A DNA stretch of 64,000 nucleotides, taken from assembly GCA_001804705.1 (NCBI GenBank), contig MHAY01000060.1, positions 52,055-116,054 of the forward strand, given 5' to 3'. Origin of the DNA: Ignavibacteria bacterium RIFOXYC2_FULL_35_21 (GTDB lineage Bacteria > Bacteroidota > Ignavibacteria > Kapaibacteriales > UBA2268). This document shows positions 6,450-27,469 of this stretch, piece after piece. The notes beneath the pieces were generated by a model, which worked only from the letters and a program-made list of their open reading frames with translations, was not told the DNA's origin and searched no databases. The translations under genes and the position numbers were made by a program. The first letter of the stretch is position 1. Each line of letters starts with the position of its first letter.

Positions 6450-8414
6450 ATGCTAATAGTATCAAACCTATCAATACATTTTGCAAATAGATATCTTTTT
6501 GATGGCATTACTTTCTCGGTTAATCCCGGCGACAGGATTGGCTTGATTGGTAGGAATGGTTCGGGTAAGACAACACTCCTGAATATCATAGCAGGGTTGC
6601 AGCAGGCTGAAGAAGGTACAATTATCAAACCGAAAGAATATCGAATTGGCTACCTGCCACAGGAAGAGGATCCTTCCACTACGCTCAGGATGACAAGAAC
6701 TGTTAAAGATGAAGTATATTCATCTTTAGAAGATATTGATTCAATAGATTTGAGATTAATTGAAATCTCATTACAACTCGAAAACAGAACTGATATTGGC
6801 AGTGAATCATACAATAAACTTGTCCGTGAGCAAAGTGAGTTACATGAAAGATTTGTAGTTCTTGGCGGGCATAGCATTGAGGCTGAAATTGTGAGTGTAA
6901 TGAAGGGATTGGGCTTTGATGACTATGATTTATCAAGAAATGTGAGTGAATTGAGCGGCGGCTGGCAAATGAGAATTGAACTTGCAAAAATTTTACTAAG
7001 TAAACCTGACTGCATACTTCTCGATGAACCTACCAATCATCTGGATATTGATTCAATTATGTGGGTAGAATCCTTCTTAAGAAATTATAAAGGGTCTGTT
7101 TTGCTTGTTTCTCACGACAGAACATTCCTCGATTCCGTAACGAACAGAACCATCGAAATTTCAAACGGAAAAATTTATGACTTAAATAAATCATATACTG
7201 AATTTGTAAAGTTCCGTGATGAACAAAGAAGGCAACAGCTTAATGCTTTCAAAGGCCAACAAAGACAAATAGCTGAAACTGAAAAATACATCGAGCGTTT
7301 CAGGTACAAAGCAACACTTGCATCCCGGGTTCAATCAAAAATAAAGATGCTCGATAAAATAGAAAGAATCGAGATGGATGAAGAAGATATTTCATCAATA
7401 AGGTTTAAATTTCCCGATGCAACGCGTTCAGGAAGGCTCGTCACGGAGACAATAGGTTTAAGCAAAAGCTTCGGTGATAAAATTGTATTGAAAGATATAA
7501 ATATTTCGATTGAGCAAGGAGATAAAGTCGCATTTATTGGAAGAAACGGGGAAGGCAAGACAACTTTTTCAAAGATTCTTGCCGGTGTGGAATCTTATGA
7601 TGGAAATTTGAAGATTGGGTATAATGTTTCAATTGGATTTTATGAACAGCAACAAACAGAGTTTCTTGAAAAGGATTCGACGGTATTTGATATTATTGAT
7701 AAAGCGGCAACAGGTGATATTAGAACCCGGTTAAGACAATTGCTCGGGGCATTTTTATTTAGCGGAGAGGATATTTATAAGAAGGTAAAGGTTCTTTCGG
7801 GAGGAGAAAAATCAAGGCTTGCAATTGCAAAATTATTACTCCAACCGAGTAATTTTCTCATTCTGGATGAGCCGACTAATCATCTCGATATGGGTTCAAA
7901 AGATGTACTGAAACGGGCATTAATTGATTACAAAGGTACGCTTGTGATTGTTTCACATGACAGGGAATTTCTTCACGGACTGACAAACAGGACAGTATTA
8001 TTTAAGAATAAAAAATTGATTGATTATCCCGGGGATATATATGAATTTCTTGAAAAGCAGAAATTGGAATCTTTGAGGGAAGTTGAAATAAGTAATAAAG
8101 AAGTAAAATTATTTGAGGCATCTGAGAAAATAAGCGAGTCAAAAACTTACAGAGAAGGCCGGAAAAAGCTTCAGAGAGAAATGACTAAACTGAATAAAAG
8201 AATTACAAAGTGTGAAGCAGAAATAATGGAATTAGAGATTGACATTTTTGCTCTCGAGGATGAATTCTCAAATGCCGATTTTTATTTAGATATTAAATCA
8301 AGTCAAAAAAAACAGAAAGAATATAAAGAGAAGAAAGACAAATTGGAATTAAAGGTAGATGAATGGTCAAAACTTCATTTAGAGCTCGAGGATTTCCCAA
8401 AAAATTACTTATAG
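6450..8414 (+). CDS. ABC-F family ATPase (two ABC domains plus a C-terminal coiled coil; no TM domain)
   Basis: Walker A motifs GRNGSGKTT and GRNGEGKTT, signatures LSGGWQMR and LSGGEKSR, an inter-domain linker, and a Lys/Glu-rich C-terminal tail. Confidence 0.9.
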   Translation: MLIVSNLSIHFANRYLFDGITFSVNPGDRIGLIGRNGSGKTTLLNIIAGLQQAEEGTIIKPKEYRIGYLPQEEDPSTTLRMTRTVKDEVYSSLEDIDSIDLRLIEISLQLENRTDIGSESYNKLVREQSELHERFVVLGGHSIEAEIVSVMKGLGFDDYDLSRNVSELSGGWQMRIELAKILLSKPDCILLDEPTNHLDIDSIMWVESFLRNYKGSVLLVSHDRTFLDSVTNRTIEISNGKIYDLNKSYTEFVKFRDEQRRQQLNAFKGQQRQIAETEKYIERFRYKATLASRVQSKIKMLDKIERIEMDEEDISSIRFKFPDATRSGRLVTETIGLSKSFGDKIVLKDINISIEQGDKVAFIGRNGEGKTTFSKILAGVESYDGNLKIGYNVSIGFYEQQQTEFLEKDSTVFDIIDKAATGDIRTRLRQLLGAFLFSGEDIYKKVKVLSGGEKSRLAIAKLLLQPSNFLILDEPTNHLDMGSKDVLKRALIDYKGTLVIVSHDREFLHGLTNRTVLFKNKKLIDYPGDIYEFLEKQKLESLREVEISNKEVKLFEASEKISESKTYREGRKKLQREMTKLNKRITKCEAEIMELEIDIFALEDEFSNADFYLDIKSSQKKQKEYKEKKDKLELKVDEWSKLHLELEDFPKNYL

Positions 8415-11179
8415 AATTTTATAGCTTCTATGTTGACATCAGGCCTGATATTTCCTTTCCATTTGTTCACCAAAGCAACAAGAATTTTATAAATTTCAAT
8501 AATTATAATAATTGAAAATGTTGTGCACATAACAATCAACCATTCATTTGCAGATAGAGGTACCGTATCGAGTAAATTATTCATAACCGGAATTGCAACT
8601 GCAGAAATTTGCAAACCAATTGCAAGGACCATTACAGCAAGTAATGTAGGATTGCTAAATGGGTTGATACGGTCAATTCTGGTTCCGCCGGGATAAGGTA
8701 AGTTAGCAAACAAGGACCTGTCGAATGAACGTGAATTTTGAACGTTCCAAATCTGGAAAAAGGCTAAAACGCAAAATGCCATTGTCCTTGCTTTGTCATG
8801 TGAATTAGGATTTAATACAAGCTCAGCGTCAGGCAGGTAGTAATTGAACACAAGCAAGGTACCAATCATCATAATAAATCCGGAGATTATCATCTGATAG
8901 ACCATCCTTCTGTTTATTAATGGGCTCTCTTTTCTGCGAGGAAGGAATACCATTACATCGCCATGCTCCTTTTCAAAGGCAAGTGGGAAAGTTGATGTAC
9001 CATCTGTTACAAGGTTAATCCATAATAATTGTGCTGGAAGAACAGGCAAGGGAAAACCAAAAGCAACAGATACGGCAATTGTAAGTAAACCGCCAAAGCT
9101 GGTTGAGAGTATATATAATATAATATGCTGTAAATTTCTTAGAACAACTCTTCCTCTTCTGACAGCTTTAACGATTGTTGCAAAGTTATCATCAAAAAGA
9201 ACCATATGCGCTGATTCCTTTGCTACATCAGTTCCACTACCCATAGCCACACCGATGTCTGCCTGTTTCAATGCAGGCGCATCGTTAACACCATCGCCGG
9301 TCATTGCAACAATGTTTCCTCGTGCTTGCAATTGTTTTACTATTCTATATTTATGATGTGGAGCAACGCGGGCATAAACATCAATTTCAGGAACTTTATC
9401 AAATAATTCTTTATCGGTCATTTTATCAATTTCCAGCCCAGTGATTGCTACGGGTTTTGGTTTTCCTTTGCCTATTCCGACAGTTTTGGCTACTGATTGT
9501 GCTGTCTTTGCATGGTCACCGGTAATCATAACGACACGAATACCTGCATTGTGACATTTACTAACAGCTTCTACGGCTTCGGGCCTGACTGAGTCTTCGA
9601 TACCAGCAAATCCAATAAAAATCAAATTATTCAAATTATCGAGTGACAGAGGAAAGTTAATCGAATCATCGGAATATGCAAGGGCAAGAACCCTCAATCC
9701 TTTTTCAGAGAAAGCAAGGATAACATTATTCACATTATCCAAACTTAATGGAATTTTTGCCCCGTTAATATCAATCATTGAATTACATCTGTTTAATATT
9801 TTTTCCGGAGCTCCTTTAGCAAGTATATAATTTTTATCTTCTGAAACTACACTGACAGCCATTAATTGATTTTCGGATTCAAAAGGAATATCTATATTAA
9901 CCTGGAAATTGTTAGTGTTAAATCCAAGTTTCTTTGCAGCAATCATTAATGCTACTTCAGTAGGGTCACCGGTGATATCCCAGTCAGTTCCGTTTTCCTT
10001 AATTGCAGATTCGGTGCAGAGAGAACCAACTAATGCCGTAAGATTCAGAGCATAGTAATCATCGGCGAATACCTGTTCACCGCTATGTTGCGAAAATACC
10101 TGTCCTTCTCTTGAGTAGCCCGAACCAATGACATCAAAATATTCTCCACCGCTGTAAAGCCTAGTAACGGTCATTTGATTTTTTGTAAGAGTGCCTGTCT
10201 TGTCGGTACAAATGATATTAGTACTGCCGAGAGTTTCAACTGCCTTAAGTTTTTTTACAATGGCTTTTTGTTTTGCCATCTGCGACAGACCAATAGATAA
10301 TGTTATAGTAACAGCGACAGGTAATCCTTCGGGTATGGCTGAAACAGCTAAGCCGACAGAGGTGAGAAACATTGTTAGCCAATCATTTCCCCGAAGGTAG
10401 CCAACAAGAAAAATCACAACAACAATAACCATAATAGCTATGCTGATAAATTTGCCGAAAGCAGCCATCTGGATTCCCAGGGGAGATACTGTTTCTTCGG
10501 CTTCGGCTACCTTAACTGAAATTTTACCGAATTCTGTTTGATTACCAACAGCAGTAACGACTGCAACTCCTCTGCCTTTTTGGACAATAGTGCCTGAATA
10601 AAGCATTGTGAATCTGTCACCGAGAGGAGCATCCTTACTGATAATAGAGTTGGCGTTTTTTGTGATTGAAAAAGATTCGCCTGTCAGCATAGATTCATCA
10701 ATCAGCAGATTTTGAGAATCAATTAACCGTGCATCTGCCGGTACCCTGACACCGCTTTCAAGTATAATAATATCACCAACAACGACTTCAGTAGCAGCTA
10801 TTATTTGTTGTATTCCTTCTCTTATGACACGGGCAGTCGGTGCTGTCATTTTCATCAGGGCATTTAATGCGTCCGAAGCCCTGCGTTCCTGGATAAATCC
10901 GATTAGAGTATTAAGTATAACGACAGTAGCTATTACAAAAGTGTCTTTTAATTCTGCAAGAAAAGCATTTAATACGGCTGCGACAATCAGAATATAGATA
11001 ACCGGGTCGTTGAATTGCTCGAGCAATAATACCCATGCTGATTTTTCTTTAGTTGATATTAGTGTGTTGTCCCCATGTTTTTCCCTCATATCATTTATTT
11101 GATTCGATGATAGTCCGGTTTCCTGATTAACATTTAATGTTTTCAGGACAACATCACTTGATTGCGTATGCCAAAACAT
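8405..11179 (-). CDS. P-type ATPase, type IIA-like cation (Ca2+-type) transporter
   Basis: DKTGTLT phosphorylation site (ICTDKTGTLT), PEGLP in TM4, TGDHAKTA, and MTGDGVNDAPAL. Start placed at M34 (MFWHTQ..). The ORF track extends it to 11278. Confidence 0.85.
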   Translation of the reverse strand: MFWHTQSSDVVLKTLNVNQETGLSSNQINDMREKHGDNTLISTKEKSAWVLLLEQFNDPVIYILIVAAVLNAFLAELKDTFVIATVVILNTLIGFIQERRASDALNALMKMTAPTARVIREGIQQIIAATEVVVGDIIILESGVRVPADARLIDSQNLLIDESMLTGESFSITKNANSIISKDAPLGDRFTMLYSGTIVQKGRGVAVVTAVGNQTEFGKISVKVAEAEETVSPLGIQMAAFGKFISIAIMVIVVVIFLVGYLRGNDWLTMFLTSVGLAVSAIPEGLPVAVTITLSIGLSQMAKQKAIVKKLKAVETLGSTNIICTDKTGTLTKNQMTVTRLYSGGEYFDVIGSGYSREGQVFSQHSGEQVFADDYYALNLTALVGSLCTESAIKENGTDWDITGDPTEVALMIAAKKLGFNTNNFQVNIDIPFESENQLMAVSVVSEDKNYILAKGAPEKILNRCNSMIDINGAKIPLSLDNVNNVILAFSEKGLRVLALAYSDDSINFPLSLDNLNNLIFIGFAGIEDSVRPEAVEAVSKCHNAGIRVVMITGDHAKTAQSVAKTVGIGKGKPKPVAITGLEIDKMTDKELFDKVPEIDVYARVAPHHKYRIVKQLQARGNIVAMTGDGVNDAPALKQADIGVAMGSGTDVAKESAHMVLFDDNFATIVKAVRRGRVVLRNLQHIILYILSTSFGGLLTIAVSVAFGFPLPVLPAQLLWINLVTDGTSTFPLAFEKEHGDVMVFLPRRKESPLINRRMVYQMIISGFIMMIGTLLVFNYYLPDAELVLNPNSHDKARTMAFCVLAFFQIWNVQNSRSFDRSLFANLPYPGGTRIDRINPFSNPTLLAVMVLAIGLQISAVAIPVMNNLLDTVPLSANEWLIVMCTTFSIIIIIEIYKILVALVNKWKGNIRPDVNIEAIKFYK

Positions 11180-11414
11180 ATTATTAATACTTTTTTGCTT
11201 TTCTCTTATTTTAAAATGAATAATCATACAAGTTAATAAAAAATCAAATCTTTTAAAAACCTGATTTTTCAGTAACATTTAATAAGAAGAAAAGCTTGAA
11301 TTTGAGTTTTTTCTTAAATTTTTAATTATTGTAATTCAGATACTACAAAAATAAAAAAAAGGATGATAAAAGTCGAGGCATATTTACAGACATACCTTGA
11401 TTGATTAATATTTT

Positions 11415-12116
11415 TTAGAAAGTATTATAAATCAAATATACTCCTCCAAGAATCACAAGAATTCCGCAAATTCGCTTGATATATTTTGTAGTCTTGGAAT
11501 TTTCTGTCCAATTTAAATATTGCTGTACTTTCTTTGTTAATGTACCTGCCAGAACAATGACGAAAGCATGTCCCAGTGAAAATGCAACAAGTAAGCTGAT
11601 TGCTAAAATAATATCGGTTGACGAAACCTGGAATACAACACCAAGAATAGGTGCCATAAAAGCAAAGGTACAAGGTCCAAGACCAATTCCGAAAATAAGT
11701 CCAAGAATAAGAGCGGCAATCAATCCCTTGAATCTGGTACCGCTCATTTTAGCTCCATCCCATGGTAATCTTATTACGTCAAGCAAATAAAGACCAACAA
11801 CAAAAAATACAACTGCAACAATATAATTTCCTATTGAGCCGACATCTCCCATCAATCTGCCGAGAGAAAGAGTAATAATACCAATTAATGCAATTGTAAT
11901 TAAAATACCGATTGCAAAAACAAGAGATAAATTGAAAGTTCTTTTTAAAGTGATATCCCCTTGAGAACTTAAAAAACCAATTATTAAAGGAATACTAGAT
12001 AAATGGCAGGGGCTTAAAATTATACTTAATATGCCCCAACCCAAAGCAGATAAGGATGCCAACCAAAAATTCTGGTATAACAAATTACTCAGTGTATCAA
12101 ATAAATTTTCTATCAT
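11415..12116 (-). CDS. ccdA: CcdA/DsbD-family transmembrane thiol-disulfide electron transporter
   Basis: Six-TM protein with the two conserved membrane-embedded Cys motifs (LSPCHLSSIP and LGPCTFAFMAP). Confidence 0.8.
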   Translation of the reverse strand: MIENLFDTLSNLLYQNFWLASLSALGWGILSIILSPCHLSSIPLIIGFLSSQGDITLKRTFNLSLVFAIGILITIALIGIITLSLGRLMGDVGSIGNYIVAVVFFVVGLYLLDVIRLPWDGAKMSGTRFKGLIAALILGLIFGIGLGPCTFAFMAPILGVVFQVSSTDIILAISLLVAFSLGHAFVIVLAGTLTKKVQQYLNWTENSKTTKYIKRICGILVILGGVYLIYNTF

Positions 12117-12125
12117 TTTTATTTT

Positions 12126-12692
12126 CTAACTATTAATTTTTAATCCCTTGGATTGAAGAAATTTATCAATATCTTCTTCCGGGTAGTATCCTTCATGTCT
12201 GTGTATTTCCTTTTTATTGGCATCAAGGAATATCTGGGTTGGAATTAGTCTAATTCCATATTCAATGCTTTTATCTTTATACTCATCTTTCCAAACGTCA
12301 TAAAAGATGACTTTAAGTTGTTCATCATACTTTTTCTCAAGGGATTTCATAATAGGCTGCATTTTTTTGCAAGGAATACAATTTACTGAACCTAATTCAA
12401 TAAAAGTAACAATTGGATACTTTGGCGCGTCATTTGTAGAAACCTGTTCGCTACTTTTCGAACTAGTTTTGTTTTTTGAATCGGTTGCATTATTTAAATT
12501 GATATTCTTCTCCCCTTTTGCAGAACTAGCGATTGTATTATTCTCAGTGTTAGAGTTTGTTTCAGTTTTGTTTAACTCGGTTACTTCTGCAGTCTTTGTC
12601 TGAGTCTGAGGTTGTTGCTCTGATTCTTTATTATTACAACCTATTACTATAAACGAAAGTGCTAATAGTATAATTATTAAATTTAGTTTCAT
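12126..12692 (-). CDS. Thioredoxin-fold lipoprotein (CIPC active site) with a long Ser/Thr/Asn/Gln-rich linker
   Basis: Lipobox LSFIVIGC. The C-terminal domain reads VTFIELGSVNCIPCKKM...LIPTQIF. Start moved to M26 (12692), abutting the upstream stop. Paralog of 26674..27075. Confidence 0.75.
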   Translation of the reverse strand: MKLNLIIILLALSFIVIGCNNKESEQQPQTQTKTAEVTELNKTETNSNTENNTIASSAKGEKNINLNNATDSKNKTSSKSSEQVSTNDAPKYPIVTFIELGSVNCIPCKKMQPIMKSLEKKYDEQLKVIFYDVWKDEYKDKSIEYGIRLIPTQIFLDANKKEIHRHEGYYPEEDIDKFLQSKGLKINS

Positions 12693-12693
12693 A

Positions 12694-12933
12694 CTATTTT
12701 GCCTCCCCGAGCCATTGAAGAATCTGATTATCTTTTGGAATTGAGCCATAACTAACCACTTTATCATTCACAACCAAACCTGGAGTCATCATAATTCCGA
12801 ATTTCATTATTTCCTGAAGGTCGGTTATTTTTTCAATTGTGGCATCAATCTTGTTGATATTAACAATCTCTCTGACTTTTTTTTCAAGATTAACACATTT
12901 AGCACACCCGGTTCCTAAAATTTTGATATTCAT
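12694..12933 (-). CDS. Small glutaredoxin-like protein (redox-active disulfide protein 2 / MTH895-TM0996 type)
   Basis: 79 aa with MNIKILGTGCAKC...MMTPGLVVNDKVV. This is the typical small Trx-fold protein found next to ArsP-type permeases. Confidence 0.75.
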   Translation of the reverse strand: MNIKILGTGCAKCVNLEKKVREIVNINKIDATIEKITDLQEIMKFGIMMTPGLVVNDKVVSYGSIPKDNQILQWLGEAK

Positions 12934-12934
12934 T

Positions 12935-13342
12935 TCAATCTCCTAATATTTTTTTTATTTCATTAGTTATATATTTTTTAAATTTTTTAAAATCATTCTC
13001 ATAATCCCAAATCTTATCGAGATTTTTCCATTGAACTTCTTTTCCATTTATTTTTTTGCTGATTATAAGTGTTTGAGTGTCAAATTTATATTGTTCTTGA
13101 TAATGTCCATTCTTCGGTTGAAGAAAATCAAGAGATTTGAGAGTTATTGTACTATCTTTTAACTCTTTTTCAAAATATAATTCAACCGAATTCTTAATGA
13201 AGTCTTCAATTGTAAGGCAAGCATGACACCTTATAGTTGCATGGAAATATAAAATATCTATCTGTACATTTTTGACCTGAGCTTGCATATTAATTAAGCT
13301 CATTATAAATACAATAGCTACAATAATGATTTGTCTTTTCAT
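12935..13342 (-). CDS. Small exported CxxC protein (resembles proteins annotated as ArsF family in ars clusters; from memory, unverified)
   Basis: Signal peptide, then IDILYFHATIRCHACLTIE. About 135 aa. Paralog of 14951..15364. Confidence 0.45.
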   Translation of the reverse strand: MKRQIIIVAIVFIMSLINMQAQVKNVQIDILYFHATIRCHACLTIEDFIKNSVELYFEKELKDSTITLKSLDFLQPKNGHYQEQYKFDTQTLIISKKINGKEVQWKNLDKIWDYENDFKKFKKYITNEIKKILGD

Positions 13343-13587
13343 TAGCTGTTCACTCCTTTACTTAAATAAACCTTCAGTTCCTCAACCGTTGGCACTTTAC
13401 CGGAGAACAAAACCTTGTCATTGACAACTAATGCTGGAGTTCTCATAACACCAAATTGTGCAATTGTGTTTATATTTGACATTTTAAAGATGTCTGCCTT
13501 AATATTCAATTCATGCACGGCAGAACGAACTCTTTTTTCGAGAGTCTCACAATTTATGCAACCAGGCCCTAAAACAAGAATGTCCAT
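13342..13587 (-). CDS. Small glutaredoxin-like protein (redox-active disulfide protein 2 type), second copy
   Basis: MDILVLGPGCINC...VMRTPALVVNDKVLF. Start moved to M13 (13587). The stop overlaps the next start by 1 nt. Confidence 0.75.
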   Translation of the reverse strand: MDILVLGPGCINCETLEKRVRSAVHELNIKADIFKMSNINTIAQFGVMRTPALVVNDKVLFSGKVPTVEELKVYLSKGVNS

Positions 13588-13597
13588 TTCTTCACCT

Positions 13598-14890
13598 TTA
13601 AATAAGACCAAAAATAAATCCAACTATTGTTGAAAAAAATACGACTAATGACACATATATTACCGTCTTCTTAGTGCCAATTACACTTTTAATAACAAGC
13701 ATACTTGGTAAAGATAATGCAGGTCCAGCTAATAGCAAAGCAAGTGCAGGCCCCTTTCCCATACCTGAACCCATCAATCCCTGTAAAATCGGAACTTCCG
13801 TTAAAGTAGCAAAATACATAAAAGCGGCAATAATACTTGAAATGAAGTTAGCAAACAACGAATTACCTCCAACTAAATCTGATATCCACACTGAAGGAAT
13901 AATTCCTTCATGCCCGGGTCTGCCGAGCATAAATCCGGCAAAAAGGACACCAATGAACAGAAGCGGCATGATTTGCTTAGCAAATGTCCACGTAGATTCG
14001 AACCATTTCTTCAATTCGTCATTGCCGGTTATAGTGATATATGTTAAACCTAATATTGCTACTCCAAATGGAATACTTGGATTATCAAATATAAATACGG
14101 AAACAGCAACAATTGCCGCAATTGCTACTAATTTAATGATATTGGCTTTATACCACAGCGCCAATACAATACCGAATATTAAAGCTGCAACCGAAGTTAT
14201 TATCCATTTTGAACTATATACCGCAAACCAAAAACCTTCAACCGTATCGGGTTTAGCCCAGTTCGAAAACACCAGAATAATTATCATCAAACCAAAGAAT
14301 ATTATTGTTTGCCATAATGGTCGTGGTGTTTCCGGTTCGGGCAGTTCGGCGGCGGCTTCAATTTTTTTTATTTCTTCCTTCCTAAAAATAAACGCCATAA
14401 TCAAACCGATTACTATAGCAAAAGAAACGGCTCCAACTGTTCTTGCAACTGCAATTTCAATCCCAAGCACTTTCCCCGATAAAATTATAGCTAAAACATT
14501 AATTGCCGGACCAGAGTATAAAAATGCTATTGCCGGTCCCAAACCAGCACCCATCATATATATTCCTGTAAAAATAGGCAATACAGTACAAGAACACACC
14601 GCAAGAATACTTCCGGAAACTGAGCCAACACCATAAGCCATTTTTTTATTAGCTTTAGGTCCCAAATATTTCATCACTGAATTTTGACTTACAAAGACGC
14701 CAATTGCTCCTGCGATGTAAAATGCAGGCAGTAAACATAGAATTACATGTTCTTGGGCATACCATTTCATCAACTCTAAGGCTTCAAATATTGCCCCATC
14801 AAATCTTTGATTACCTATAGGTAAATTATAAAATAATATAAATGCCACTGCTAAATATATAAAAATTTTTATTTCTTTTTTCCATTCCAT
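13598..14890 (-). CDS. Multi-pass permease of the ArsP / UPF0718 (COG0701-like) type
   Basis: 430 aa with about 10 TM helices and a conserved CxC motif in a TM helix (SILAVCSCTVLPIF). It is followed by a small redox-active disulfide protein, the classic pairing. Confidence 0.65.
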   Translation of the reverse strand: MEWKKEIKIFIYLAVAFILFYNLPIGNQRFDGAIFEALELMKWYAQEHVILCLLPAFYIAGAIGVFVSQNSVMKYLGPKANKKMAYGVGSVSGSILAVCSCTVLPIFTGIYMMGAGLGPAIAFLYSGPAINVLAIILSGKVLGIEIAVARTVGAVSFAIVIGLIMAFIFRKEEIKKIEAAAELPEPETPRPLWQTIIFFGLMIIILVFSNWAKPDTVEGFWFAVYSSKWIITSVAALIFGIVLALWYKANIIKLVAIAAIVAVSVFIFDNPSIPFGVAILGLTYITITGNDELKKWFESTWTFAKQIMPLLFIGVLFAGFMLGRPGHEGIIPSVWISDLVGGNSLFANFISSIIAAFMYFATLTEVPILQGLMGSGMGKGPALALLLAGPALSLPSMLVIKSVIGTKKTVIYVSLVVFFSTIVGFIFGLI

Positions 14891-14950
14891 TTAATAATCT
14901 CCAAAGGTATTTTTGCTTACTTTATTTTCAAATAGGGTTCTGTTTATTAC

Positions 14951-15364
14951 TTACTTAATTGCTTCAGCAATACTTTTCTTCATTTCCTCTTCAAATTTCA
15001 TTTTATTACTTGTTCTTGCATAGTCTTTAACAATTGCAGAAACATCCACCGATGATTCATCCTGTCCAATTTTTGTAACAATAATGACAGTTTGCGATTT
15101 TGCATTGTATTTTGAAACTAAATCTATATTAGCAGAATCTGCTAACCGGATAACTTTAAATTCAATATTCTCGTTAGCAAAGTATTTAATCAAGACAGAA
15201 TCAACGTCTGCCTGAAGGGCATTACAGGCTCTTGCTTTACAGCAAGCAAGATTTGCTTTGAAATATAAAACTTCAATATATTTTTTGTTTTCTTGTGCTA
15301 AAGAAGTTTCAAATACTGAAATAACAGCCAAGAAAAGCAATAAAACTAATTTCTGCAAATTCAA
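14951..15364 (-). CDS. Small exported Cys-motif protein (ArsF-family-like), second copy
   Basis: Signal peptide, then YIEVLYFKANLACCKARACNAL. Same length and pattern as 12935..13342. Confidence 0.45.
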   Translation of the reverse strand: MNLQKLVLLLFLAVISVFETSLAQENKKYIEVLYFKANLACCKARACNALQADVDSVLIKYFANENIEFKVIRLADSANIDLVSKYNAKSQTVIIVTKIGQDESSVDVSAIVKDYARTSNKMKFEEEMKKSIAEAIK

Positions 15365-16093
15365 TTAATTTTCTCCTAATCTATCACAAAATGCTTTATA
15401 TACATTCTTTGCTCTTGACCTTTCAATTGCTTGTGTTTTCAAGTAATCCAGATTATTAATAACCATATCTAGTTTTGAGTATGGAAAACCCAATACTGCT
15501 TCTCCTGTCTTTACATCTGTTGCATCCCTGCATCCATAGCAACCGAAACTCATATTAATCATACCGCTCAAATATGGAATTACACATGCATCAACGCATA
15601 CAGCCTGTAAAATACTGGTGCTAAATTCAAGCCTTCCGCCATCCTCATTCAAATAAGCAAGAGCAAGCCACATCAACTTTTCTACTTCATCCTCAACTAT
15701 TATCACATCAGGAGTTTTATCGAAATTTTTCAATGGCTTCACAAGAACTGAATTAAATTTATTCTGCTCAATCCTTGGCATTGTTTCCATTACTTTCTGT
15801 CCAACTTCAAGTTCACGAAATATTCCATATCCTTGTAATATACTGCCGTTTTTTAACTGCTCTGTGAGTGGTTTAAGACCTAAAGCTGCTGCTGCCGCCG
15901 GACAAGCAATGTTATCTTTATTGATCGTTATTGATTTGCCATGTCGTGCTTCCATTACTGCCTGGCAAAACCGGCAGTCAATCTTATTAGACTGTTCAGA
16001 TTGATAATTTTCTTTGTAAAATTTTACACCTACCGGCAAGCCCGTTAATCCAATAGTGTTCATAACTTCTTCTGATATTTCTTTTAAGTTCAT
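15365..16093 (-). CDS. DUF169-family protein
   Basis: PVGVKFYKE, CRFCQAV, ACPAAAAALGL and FGCYGCRDATD match my memory of the DUF169 (COG2043) pattern. Function unknown. Confidence 0.6.
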   Translation of the reverse strand: MNLKEISEEVMNTIGLTGLPVGVKFYKENYQSEQSNKIDCRFCQAVMEARHGKSITINKDNIACPAAAAALGLKPLTEQLKNGSILQGYGIFRELEVGQKVMETMPRIEQNKFNSVLVKPLKNFDKTPDVIIVEDEVEKLMWLALAYLNEDGGRLEFSTSILQAVCVDACVIPYLSGMINMSFGCYGCRDATDVKTGEAVLGFPYSKLDMVINNLDYLKTQAIERSRAKNVYKAFCDRLGEN

Positions 16094-16094
16094 A

Positions 16095-16463
16095 TTAATT
16101 CCTTTTTTTATCTTCTTTGTCGCTACATATTATGTCATATCTATCAACACTTTTAACTTTCGCCAAATCTTCCTTTATCTCCTTCTCATTAGAGAACCAT
16201 CCAGGTAAAGAATCAATTATATTTTTTACGATTGTGTTTTCAATATCTTGTGAAATCCTGTAATTTATCCATTTTCCTTCTTTCTCATCTTCAATAAATC
16301 CTTCTTTTCTAAGATATGATAAATGGTTTGAAACAGTTGCAGTGGTTAAACCCAAAATCGAAGTAATTTCACAGACGCATAGCGGCTTCTGCAAAAGCAT
16401 CATCAATATCCGTACTCTATTTGGCTCGGACATCACTTTAAATAATTCTATTTTATCTCTCAT
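16095..16463 (-). CDS. arsR: ArsR/SmtB family metalloregulator (As(III)-type CVC site), second copy
   Basis: RILMMLLQKPLCVCEITSILGLTTATVSNHLSYLRKEGFI contains a winged HTH with the CVC motif. Confidence 0.85.
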   Translation of the reverse strand: MRDKIELFKVMSEPNRVRILMMLLQKPLCVCEITSILGLTTATVSNHLSYLRKEGFIEDEKEGKWINYRISQDIENTIVKNIIDSLPGWFSNEKEIKEDLAKVKSVDRYDIICSDKEDKKRN

Positions 16464-16480
16464 CTGTTTTTCTCATTTAT

Positions 16481-16504
16481 TCATTTAGCTAATCATCTAA
16501 ACGA
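16481..16504. promoter_or_regulatory. Candidate ArsR operator (imperfect inverted repeat) upstream of the second arsR
   Basis: TCATTTAG-N8-CTAAACGA (7 of 8 positions complementary), 18-41 nt upstream of the arsR start at 16463. Confidence 0.3.
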
Positions 16505-16691
16505 TAATTATGAAAATATATTTTGAATACCAAATGATTTCTAAAAAATATTTGCTTCTAAACAAGGAAATTTGAGGTTGTGTCAAGATAAAAATAAATA
16601 AACACCCAAAGTGGTAAAATGAAAATCGGAAAATATTTTTTATAATACCTGATTCTATGTTTGAAAACACCTATTGACTCATCTCGCATAT

Positions 16692-26673: not shown

Positions 26674-27075
26674 TTATTTGCATATTAAACCTCTCGACTG
26701 CAATAAAATATGTATGCTGTCTTCAGAAAAAAATCCCTCATGTCTATAAAACTCAATATTGGCTGAATCAAGAAATACCTGGGTAGGCATTAACCTTATT
26801 TTATATTGTTCCGCTTCTTCTCTGTTTTTTATTACATCAATGAATTTCACAAGTATTTGGCTACCATATTTTTTTTGAATTGAATCCATTACAGGTCTCA
26901 TGTTTTGGCAAGGGATACAACTCACAGAACCAAGTTCAATAAATGTTACTTTCGTAATTGTATCTATTGGATTAATATTGTTATCACTAATATTGTCAGA
27001 GTTATTACAAGATGAAATAAGGAAACACAATATTAAAACCAATAATACTATAAATATTTTGCTCTTATTTTTCAT
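26674..27075 (-). CDS. Thioredoxin-fold lipoprotein (CIPC active site), paralog of 12126..12692
   Basis: Lipobox FLISSC, then VTFIELGSVSCIPCQNM...LMPTQVF. Confidence 0.75.
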   Translation of the reverse strand: MKNKSKIFIVLLVLILCFLISSCNNSDNISDNNINPIDTITKVTFIELGSVSCIPCQNMRPVMDSIQKKYGSQILVKFIDVIKNREEAEQYKIRLMPTQVFLDSANIEFYRHEGFFSEDSIHILLQSRGLICK

Positions 27076-27469
27076 TATAAATAAGGTTATTTAATTCCAC
27101 AGTTTCGATGTAATCAATTATTTCATCCACTTTATCTACTGTTACAGGAGTTTTCCCCTTTACTATTCCAAAATCGGTTGTATTAATGTGTTTAAAGGTT
27201 GTTATTCCTTTATCCTTTAGAATTTCTTCTGCACAATTGATAGGACATCCATCAAGGACTACAAATCTTGAGTACTCTTGTTTGGATTGTTCTGTAAATT
27301 TTTCGTCTATTGCAAATCTTGCAAGGCACAGCATTTTAGATTTACCTCTTTGCATTAGTTTACGGGCAACCAAATCTGAATATGCACCTGTGTTTGATGC
27401 CCCTGAACAAGCGACGATTCCAACTTTTCCATCTTCCATTTTTAATCTTTCTGTATCATTTATTATCAA
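27065..27469 (-). CDS. DGC-domain (putative zinc-binding) protein
   Basis: VACSGASNTGAYSDLVARKL...MLCLA...VVLDGCPINCAEEILKDKGI contains the eponymous D-G-C motif and conserved Cys. The start may be M11 (27439). Confidence 0.7.
   Translation of the reverse strand: MIINDTERLKMEDGKVGIVACSGASNTGAYSDLVARKLMQRGKSKMLCLARFAIDEKFTEQSKQEYSRFVVLDGCPINCAEEILKDKGITTFKHINTTDFGIVKGKTPVTVDKVDEIIDYIETVELNNLIYNEK

Follow-up and report, generated by a model that had tools for sequence, protein, structure and literature searches.

A nine-gene operon headed by a gene for an ArsR-type repressor was analysed in a 64,000-nucleotide (nt) stretch of DNA from Ignavibacteria bacterium RIFOXYC2_FULL_35_21 (contig MHAY01000060.1, positions 52,055 to 116,054 of the forward strand). 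This whole stretch is referred to as the window, and coordinates are window positions unless another locus is named. The operon occupies the minus strand from 16463 to 11415 and consists of nine co-directional open reading frames (ORFs), which encode, in order, ArsR2, a DUF169 protein, an ArsF-like protein (ArsF1), an ArsP_1 permease, ArsE1, ArsF2, ArsE2, an exported thioredoxin and a CcdA-type membrane protein. From arsR2 to CcdA the intergenic gaps are 1, 0, 60, 10, -1, 1, 1 and 9 nt. All terminator-like sites in the scan lay on the plus strand, with none on the minus strand inside the nine-gene string. The spacing alone suggests that the nine genes are co-transcribed. An initial annotation, made from the letters of the DNA, had described an arsR followed by eight tightly coupled genes; all nine ORFs were recovered at its coordinates, and dozens of genomes share this order of genes.

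The operon is a fusion of two portable modules, arsR2-DUF169-ArsF1 at the front and the permease-to-CcdA segment behind it. We consider it probable that together they form an ArsR-gated unit in which the permease expels a thiol-reactive arsenical while an ArsE-CcdA-thioredoxin-ArsF relay keeps the dithiol of exported ArsF reduced for arsenical chemistry outside the cytoplasm. The proteins of the relay are described first, followed by the permease, the front module, the distribution of the genes and the regulator.

ArsF2 and the ArsF family

ArsF2 (12935..13342, minus strand) is a canonical ArsF of 135 residues with a signal peptide, scoring 92.5 bits on NF040494 against a cut-off of 60. It carries RCHAC, and the family marks YFH-x3-RCxxC, NxH and WKNLDKIW are all present. 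A signal peptide, signal anchor or lipobox was found in all ArsF relatives examined, that is, ArsF is exported in every lineage examined. Both ArsF proteins of the window have cleavable signal peptides.

Scans of ArsF2 and 41 family members returned no Pfam family for ArsF, and no sequence match was found in the PDB. The AlphaFold2 (AF2) model of ArsF2 has a predicted local distance difference test (pLDDT) score of 94.2, and the best PDB matches to this predicted fold by Foldseek were thioredoxins (E 1.6e-4, TM-score ~0.5). Thioredoxins use a cis-proline to hold protein substrates. No conserved proline was found in the ArsF alignment, and this absence, taken with a presumed conserved cationic pocket, suggests that the ligand of ArsF is not a protein and is small, probably anionic or thiophilic. 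An ArsC/Spx-like reductase was considered as an identity for ArsF, but neither the Pfam scans of 41 members nor the 50 best Foldseek hits gave it any sequence support. The R773 ArsC motif IYHNPAC, which we take to resemble YFHxxxRC, was left as a lead without sequence support.

Tandem double or triple ArsF genes were observed upstream of ArsG in loci L032 (7869-10302), L039, L051, L072 and L079 of the comparative set described below. The two ArsF copies of L032 are 291-315 residues long, with extended N-terminal regions.

ArsE, the exported thioredoxin and CcdA

Two small redox proteins flank ArsF2. ArsE1 (13342..13587, minus strand) is a cytoplasmic mini-thioredoxin with a CINC motif and a cis-proline in TP, and ArsE2 (12694..12933, minus strand), with CAKC, precedes the thioredoxin/CcdA pair. 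Both match Thioredoxin_3 and lie above the cut-off of 62 on the 'MTH895/ArsE' model TIGR00412 (95.7 bits for ArsE1 and 101.4 bits for ArsE2). Neither has a signal peptide. The two are 42% identical to each other, ArsE1 occurs in some relatives only, and ArsE2 matches PDB 1ILO (MTH895) at E 6.7e-12. They had been annotated as two mini-glutaredoxins; the description as duplicated small redox proteins stands, and the family is corrected to the MTH895/ArsE-type thioredoxin-like proteins.

The thioredoxin (12126..12692, minus strand; Thioredoxin_2 and Thioredoxin) is an exported lipoprotein with the lipobox VIGC, a CIPC site and a cis-proline in IPT. All 22 related thioredoxins of CcdA-type loci combine C(I/V)PC and PT with a signal peptide, as expected of an exported acceptor. 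The window protein also carries a ~70-residue low-complexity linker rich in Asn, Ser, Thr, Lys and Glu. Most orthologous exported thioredoxins (L003-L020) are 121-129 residues long and have a plain signal peptide without this linker.

CcdA (11415..12116, minus strand) is a DsbD_TM membrane protein (PF02683, 42.4 bits against a cut-off of 27.1) with one cysteine per half, in SPCH of transmembrane helix 1 and GPCT of transmembrane helix 4. The segments LSPCHLSSIP and GLGPCTFAFMAP are conserved in 20 orthologues. One cysteine per half, in 'PC' motifs, is common to the ArsG and CcdA families; on the ArsG model NF040495, however, the window protein reaches 50.5 bits against a cut-off of 200 and is not a member. 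No true ArsG was found by NF040495 search in the genome, which is 97.75% complete. In control searches with the ArsF and ArsG models, Bacteroides thetaiotaomicron exceeded both cut-offs. A separate 675-residue DsbD-like gene lies elsewhere in the genome, which indicates that the CcdA of the window is an extra, dedicated copy and makes a housekeeping role in cytochrome maturation unlikely for it. In L089 a GIY-YIG nuclease-domain ORF (9285-9575; Ignavibacteriaceae) stands between thioredoxin and CcdA and may be a mobile insertion.

The exported CIPC thioredoxin and the CcdA of the initial annotation were thus recovered with lipobox, active site, cis-proline and both 'PC' cysteines in place. Its parts list for carrying reducing equivalents from cytoplasm to periplasm is complete and correctly placed, with ArsE lacking a signal peptide, the cysteines of CcdA in their 'PC' motifs, and thioredoxin and ArsF exported. 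The further proposal that these parts serve periplasmic reduction of an oxidised or organo-arsenical is conjecture.

The ArsP_1 permease

The permease (13598..14890, minus strand) had been called ArsP-like, and the assignment is firm: PF03773 is matched at E 4.8e-68 and 229.9 bits, and the cysteine pair expected of the family is found as CSC in the motif AVCSCTVLP. At 430 residues, with ~100 extra residues in the middle of the protein, it is longer than the ~300-residue, eight-transmembrane-segment ArsP of Campylobacter jejuni. It thus belongs to the second ArsP type, of ~400 residues, that has already been described (PMC2963123). Campylobacter ArsP exports methylarsenite (MAs(III)) and trivalent roxarsone (Rox(III)) (review, PMC6205960). 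The best NCBIfam equivalogs for the window permease were SaoE and the SO_0444 Cu/Zn exporter, both under their cut-offs.

A small CMD/AhpD-like gene was observed just upstream of ArsP_1 in L083 (5866-6099), L087 (5278-5598) and L095 (2677-2997), three loci of different lineages. The window has no such gene; the corresponding position is taken up by the 60-nt gap between ArsF1 and the permease.

The DUF169-ArsF1 front module

The DUF169 protein (15365..16093, minus strand), predicted to be cytoplasmic, matches PF02596 at E 4.9e-55 and 187.1 bits against a gathering cut-off of 27, which bears out its first assignment. It is a single copy in the genome. Its cysteines C43, C64 and C166 are invariant across 51 diverse sequences of the family. 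The AF2 model has a pLDDT of 96.5; no structural relative of the modelled fold was found in the PDB (best E 0.23, TM-score ~0.2), and no PDB sequence match either. A solved structure of a DUF169 protein, which had been expected, did not turn up in this PDB sequence search. No function is given for DUF169 in the literature, in agreement with the first description of the gene.

ArsF1 (14951..15364, minus strand) is an exported protein of 137 residues. It scores 42.8 bits on NF040494, below the cut-off of 60, and is not a canonical ArsF: the site is CCKARAC, a widened C-C-x4-C, and the protein lacks the H, R and WKNL residues that mark canonical ArsF. Homology to ArsF is nevertheless clear (hhalign probability 99.75%, E 2.6e-27). 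The initial annotation had grouped the two signal-peptide proteins with CxxC-like sites in one ArsF family, and on this evidence they are homologous to each other and to ArsF, ArsF2 as a full member and ArsF1 from below the cut-off. ArsF1 sits on a long separate branch of the ArsF tree and represents a divergent subfamily of >254 sequences, mostly from metagenome-assembled genomes of Bacteroidia, in which C42 and C47 are invariant and the preceding cysteine (C41) is common without being invariant. In Bacteroidia its place is behind the ArsP_1 permease, in loci with ArsE, canonical-type ArsF and ArsG. Homology to ArsD was considered for ArsF1 and rejected, with an hhalign probability of 2.6% and no match to Pfam ArsD (PF06953) in 35 members.

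Close relatives of the DUF169 protein (54-87% identity) are common in Ignavibacteria, and all six contexts inspected are ArsR- or ars-linked. In L088 arsR2, DUF169 and ArsF1 stand alone; their neighbours are a CDF cation exporter, TauE and FmdE, and no ars gene is seen around them. The P0165 contig carries ArsR, DUF169 and a 137-residue gene. In L095/L096 the order is acr3, HesB, CoA-binding, DUF169, ArsF1, CMD, ArsP_1, ArsE, ArsF, ArsE. L089 runs from arsC through acr3 to ArsR, ArsP_1 and DUF169 and then to Trx_3, Trx and CcdA, with further genes between these groups. In L090 (Melioribacter) ArsR is followed at a distance by Trx_3, one other gene and DUF169, then an RND pump, and in L098 acr3 adjoins DUF169. 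The first module of the operon is therefore arsR2, DUF169 and ArsF1, found alone in L088 and joined to the permease module in a second lineage, L095. These loci show the operon as two separable modules, not one designed unit.

Among 101 genomes of the window's class, DUF169 and ArsF are each found in 13, and both in 9 (~1.7 expected by chance). DUF169 remnants with in-frame stops were observed at G076:C2:430195-430482 (L110) and G010:C31:1246-1866 (L099); the first of these, in G076, is ~5 kb away from the ArsF/CcdA module of the same genome and adjoins a DGC gene. The remnants suggest that the link between DUF169 and the cassette was gained and lost repeatedly.

Distribution of the cassette and replacement of ArsG

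An ArsF profile recovered 177 relatives in contigs taken from one genome per species. From these, 80 loci were taken and the window proteins were searched against the ORFs of each locus. The loci span Ignavibacteriota, Kapaibacteria, Zixibacteria, Omnitrophota, Thermodesulfobacteriota, Planctomycetota, Fibrobacterota, Calditrichota, Acidobacteriota, Elusimicrobiota, Armatimonadota and others. The cassette is thus spread over >12 phyla, mostly uncultured anaerobes from groundwater and sediment. Near ArsF, ArsE was found in 57 of 61 loci, the ArsP_1 permease in 49 and ArsR in 40; acr3, arsC or arsM was present in 30 of the 50 long loci.

With an iterated DsbD-family profile, 53 of 79 loci proved to encode a ~230-residue DsbD_2 protein immediately after ArsF; in most of them it starts between -4 and +5 nt from the stop of ArsF. 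Five such proteins were tested and all are true ArsG (250-307 bits, cut-off 200). The common form of the cassette is arsR, arsP_1, arsE, arsF, arsG, named after Shewanella ArsEFG, and the permease-to-CcdA module of the window is its Ignavibacteria/Kapaibacteria form. In 19 loci and in the window, ArsF is accompanied by ArsE2, the secreted thioredoxin and CcdA in place of ArsG. The membrane proteins of these CcdA-type loci score only 50-56 bits on the ArsG model and belong to a different DsbD subfamily. Their ArsF proteins form one clade (24 rows, support 93/87) against 57 rows of ArsG-linked ArsF, which indicates a single event of ArsG replacement.

The exchange was quantified in the window's class. 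None of ten other sampled genomes of the window's order has ArsF, so the module is accessory. Among the 12 other ArsF genomes of the class, eight carry ArsG next to ArsF and lack any close relative of the window CcdA. Of the four without ArsG, three have a window-type CcdA (53-70% identity), 0.3-2.5 kb from ArsF. Counting the window, the 13 genomes comprise none with both, eight with ArsG only, four with CcdA only and one with neither. The hypergeometric probability of no overlap is 5/715, or ~0.007, a hand calculation that ignores phylogeny.

Since ArsG can be exchanged for CcdA and an exported thioredoxin, it is most simply an electron conduit and not a pump. The alternation of the two supports the relay reading independently, and argues that a relay fits the swap better than the published labels of 'nitroreductase plus efflux pump'.

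Two variant arrangements were observed among the loci. L022, L023 and L031 (9001-9700), in or near the CcdA-type clade, hold arsR, ArsP_1, ArsF and ArsE, with no ArsG or thioredoxin/CcdA within 9 kb downstream. In L084-L086 (Lentimicrobiaceae-type) the order is ArsE, ArsR, ArsP_1, ArsF1-like, ArsF, ArsG and a PF00881 nitroreductase (8847-9479).

ArsR2 and a candidate operator

The gene for ArsR2 (16095..16463, minus strand) encodes an ArsR/SmtB repressor with a winged-helix HTH_5 domain (E 9.5e-17; NF033788, 84.8 bits against a cut-off of 55), an LCVCEI site of the As(III)-responsive CVC type and a C-terminal cysteine. The earlier reading of a second arsR of the CVC type, preceded by a 228-nt spacer, was correct on both counts. 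The spacer, presumed to be the promoter region of the operon, lies at 16464..16691 (minus strand) between a TlpA-like gene and arsR2. Promoter-like matches numbered 42 against a shuffled mean of 32.2 +/- 4.8, ~2 standard deviations above, in a scan that is uninformative for the host phylum.

An imperfect inverted repeat, TCGTTTAG-N8-CTAAATGA, lies at 16481..16504 and is a candidate ArsR2 operator. It matches at 7 of 8 positions and contains the palindrome TTAGCTAA. Repeats of this quality are at chance level in the AT-rich spacer (3 observed against 4.4 +/- 3.2 in shuffles), and the repeat was not listed by a repeat search with seed 6. L088 is the only locus with an orthologous arsR2, the regulator being 88% identical and its first 70 residues identical. 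The last ~75 nt of the spacer are partly conserved there, and the repeat core TTTAGAYGATTAGCTAAATGA is kept upstream of the L088 arsR2 at the same distance from the start codon, where L088 has TTTAGACGATTAGCTAAATGA. The repeat was not found upstream of 61 other arsR genes checked. The inverted repeat that had been noted in the spacer thus holds as a 7/8 match with a core kept in L088, and as a feature in its own right it does not exceed chance and was not found before the other arsR genes checked. Because the core is conserved in L088 it was retained, as a reasonable operator candidate drawn from two sequences.

Genomic setting and neighbouring genes

The operon is the end of a ~19-kb minus-strand island that starts with arsR1, arsC and arsM and holds acr3. 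No arsA or arsD was seen among the island genes. ArsR1 and ArsR2 are paralogues, 49% identical and with the same CVCE site. The locus was found in 17 groundwater/soil DNA runs.

A 957-residue P2-type cation ATPase (Cation_ATPase_N/C) is encoded on the minus strand at 8405-11278, 136 nt downstream of CcdA. A homologue also follows CcdA in L003, L007 and L016, so the gene may be part of the conserved surroundings of the module. In the upstream part of the island a DGC-domain protein is encoded at 27065-27469, and DGC-domain proteins recur between ArsE and ArsF, or beside the exported thioredoxin, in L025, L039, L079 and L083.

Proposed mechanism and alternatives

In the proposed scheme a trivalent arsenical would release ArsR2 from its operator. 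The permease would then expel a thiol-reactive arsenical, for example methylarsenite or arsenite, while the cytoplasmic ArsE mini-thioredoxins hand reducing equivalents to the cysteine pair of CcdA. CcdA would reduce the lipoprotein thioredoxin, which in turn would hold the CxxC of ArsF2, and perhaps the Cx4C of ArsF1, as a dithiol. Outside the cytoplasm, ArsF would bind a small arsenical and pass it on, or else reduce it. Which way the electrons run, what induces the operon, what the permease carries and what reaction ArsF performs are inferences of this scheme.

Several points weigh against the scheme. In 2019 Chen, Zhang and Rosen reportedly found that ArsE and ArsF of Shewanella carry out nitro-group reduction on roxarsone and nitarsone in their trivalent forms, and ArsG is said by the same authors to be an efflux permease; the NCBIfam names agree with this. 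ArsP_1 relatives include Cu/Zn and other exporters, so the substrate of the permease need not be arsenic. The mutual exclusivity of ArsG and CcdA comes from 13 genomes with phylogeny ignored, and in 7 of 79 loci ArsF has neither ArsG nor a window-type CcdA. The conserved His, Arg, Asn/His and Trp-Lys-Asn of ArsF are placed on loops around CxxC by the usual topology of thioredoxins, so their grouping there is presumed. Words of the locus were not found in 6 related metatranscriptome runs.

The same proteins could also carry out export by thiol hand-off without net redox chemistry. The trivalent arsenical, bound in the cytoplasm by ArsE, would pass from its CxxC to the CSC of the permease and on to ArsF or ArsF1 outside, thioredoxin and CcdA repairing only accidental oxidation. 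In arsenic chemistry R-As(III) is matched by two thiols and As(III) by three, and the two-thiol and three-thiol sites of such a chain would suit these species. The standing of ArsE as the commonest neighbour of the permease and ArsF, and the CSC motif itself, would be expected of a hand-off chain. So would the C-C-x4-C spacing of ArsF1, which is that of the As(III) site of ArsD (PDB 3MWH) and the only stretch that hhalign aligned. However, the lack of detectable homology to ArsD speaks against it, as does the variability of C41, the first cysteine of the ArsF1 pair. A stoichiometric binder outside the cell would, moreover, saturate. The tight coupling of ArsF to ArsG, together with the exclusivity of ArsG and thioredoxin/CcdA, points to a constant need for reductant and not to occasional repair. 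Hand-off alone is therefore unlikely, and a redox relay to ArsF is preferred.

A broader function was also weighed, in which the operon is a general envelope unit for thiol protection and export of soft metals or metalloids (Sb, Hg, Cu, Cd, Se, Te or sulfur species), switched by an ArsR/SmtB protein and merely sited in an arsenic island. It draws on the sub-threshold matches of the permease to SaoE and the SO_0444 Cu/Zn exporter, on the arsR2-DUF169-ArsF1 trio of L088 with its CDF, TauE and FmdE neighbours, on the RND pump preceded by DUF169 in Melioribacter, and on the presence of acr3, arsC or arsM in no more than 30 of 50 long loci. Against this, ArsR2 has a CVC site of the As(III) type, the island that ends with the operon holds arsC, arsM and acr3, and the close DUF169 relatives in L089, L095 and L098 adjoin acr3 or arsC. 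Campylobacter ArsP, as cited above, exports MAs(III) and Rox(III). We regard a general soft-metal unit as quite unlikely, and continue to favour arsenicals as the target.

The published ArsEFG reading, in which ArsE and ArsF reduce the nitro group of trivalent aromatic arsenicals and a DsbD-family protein with ArsP_1 exports the amino products, has behind it the nitroreduction work on which the names TIGR00412, NF040494 and NF040495 rest, and the nitroreductase directly after ArsG in L084-L086 would allow nitro chemistry to be cassette-linked in some lineages; it is very unlikely to describe this operon, in whose genome CcdA and a secreted thioredoxin stand instead of a true ArsG, because the membrane separates cytoplasmic ArsE from exported ArsF in every lineage examined, so that a two-subunit soluble enzyme is hard to picture, because Pfam/NCBIfam scans of ArsE and ArsF revealed neither a flavin nor a metal cofactor domain, and because an ancient cassette of mostly uncultured anaerobes is set against nitroaromatic arsenicals, which are synthetic drugs of the twentieth century.

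Beyond the relay as such, a wider proposal can be made, tentatively, as a possibility that we hold to be less likely than its negation. ArsE, ArsF and either ArsG or CcdA-thioredoxin may form one dedicated, arsenic-inducible transmembrane dithiol relay that the current names (nitroreductase subunit, efflux permease) misdescribe. ArsF would then be a new class of exported thioredoxin-fold enzyme without a cis-proline and with a pocket of His, Arg, Lys and Trp around RCxxC. It would act on a small natural arsenical outside the cytoplasm, for example by reducing or de-thiolating pentavalent or thiolated arsenicals, or by freeing envelope dithiols of As(III) or MAs(III). The second branch in the window, cytoplasmic DUF169 and exported CCx4C ArsF1, would deal with inorganic As(III) on a three-thiol site.

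Comparison with known systems

The nearest described system is ArsEFG with an adjacent ArsP_1 in Shewanella putrefaciens 200. It shares with the window the ArsE mini-thioredoxins, a canonical exported ArsF, ArsR control and the setting in an arsenic island, and the core of arsR, permease, arsE and arsF recurs across the 80 related loci. The window differs in having no ArsG, whose place is taken by ArsE2, the secreted thioredoxin and CcdA, the last from a different DsbD subfamily, in the duplication of ArsE, and in the added divergent ArsF1 (Cx4C) and DUF169. The published roles of nitroreductase and efflux pump clash with the localisation of the proteins in the window.

The relay part resembles CcdA-dependent reducing pathways with thioredoxins of the ResA, CcmG, StoA and Etrx type, and E. 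coli DsbD. The six-helix DsbD_TM with one cysteine per half is shared with them, as are the exported CxPC thioredoxin with its cis-proline and a cytoplasmic thioredoxin-fold donor encoded alongside. In those pathways the client is an apocytochrome, Msr or a spore protein, whereas here it would be ArsF, which lacks the proline and is confined to ars-type operons. The donor in the window is a dedicated MTH895-type mini-thioredoxin, and the whole pathway is under an ArsR repressor. With the ArsD metallochaperone the ArsF1 protein shares a thioredoxin-type fold and the position of its C-C-x4-C, just after the first strand; it differs in being exported and in having no detectable homology to ArsD.

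The combination of genes is not new and is already named as the ArsE/ArsF/ArsG and ArsP_1 cassette; the E/F/G names date from 2019. The same combination was recognised from genome context in 2010, as had been noted for the pairing of the permease with a small redox protein, and CcdA was then suggested as a possible transmembrane electron carrier. The 2010 study connected the combination with ArsC in the cytoplasm and considered flow across the membrane less likely. It did not identify ArsF, and it described neither the alternation of ArsG with thioredoxin/CcdA nor the DUF169-ArsF1 module.

Significance

New in the present analysis are the clean swap of thioredoxin/CcdA for ArsG with quantified exclusivity, the duplication of ArsE, and the DUF169-ArsF1 pair fused to the cassette. 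Few gene sets of unexplained role are as common in the arsenic islands of anaerobes as arsP-arsE-arsF-arsG, and its sole biochemical description concerns synthetic poultry drugs. The exchange in the ArsG slot amounts to a natural "swap experiment". It speaks for ArsG as a conduit of electrons, and for periplasmic thiol chemistry on arsenicals as the actual function of the cassette. The window also links DUF169, an old family, to arsenic-type regulons through a conserved gene pair. If the interpretation of ArsG as an electron conduit and of the cassette as thiol chemistry is true, annotation would be changed in thousands of genomes, and models of arsenic speciation by groundwater and paddy-soil microbes would be affected.

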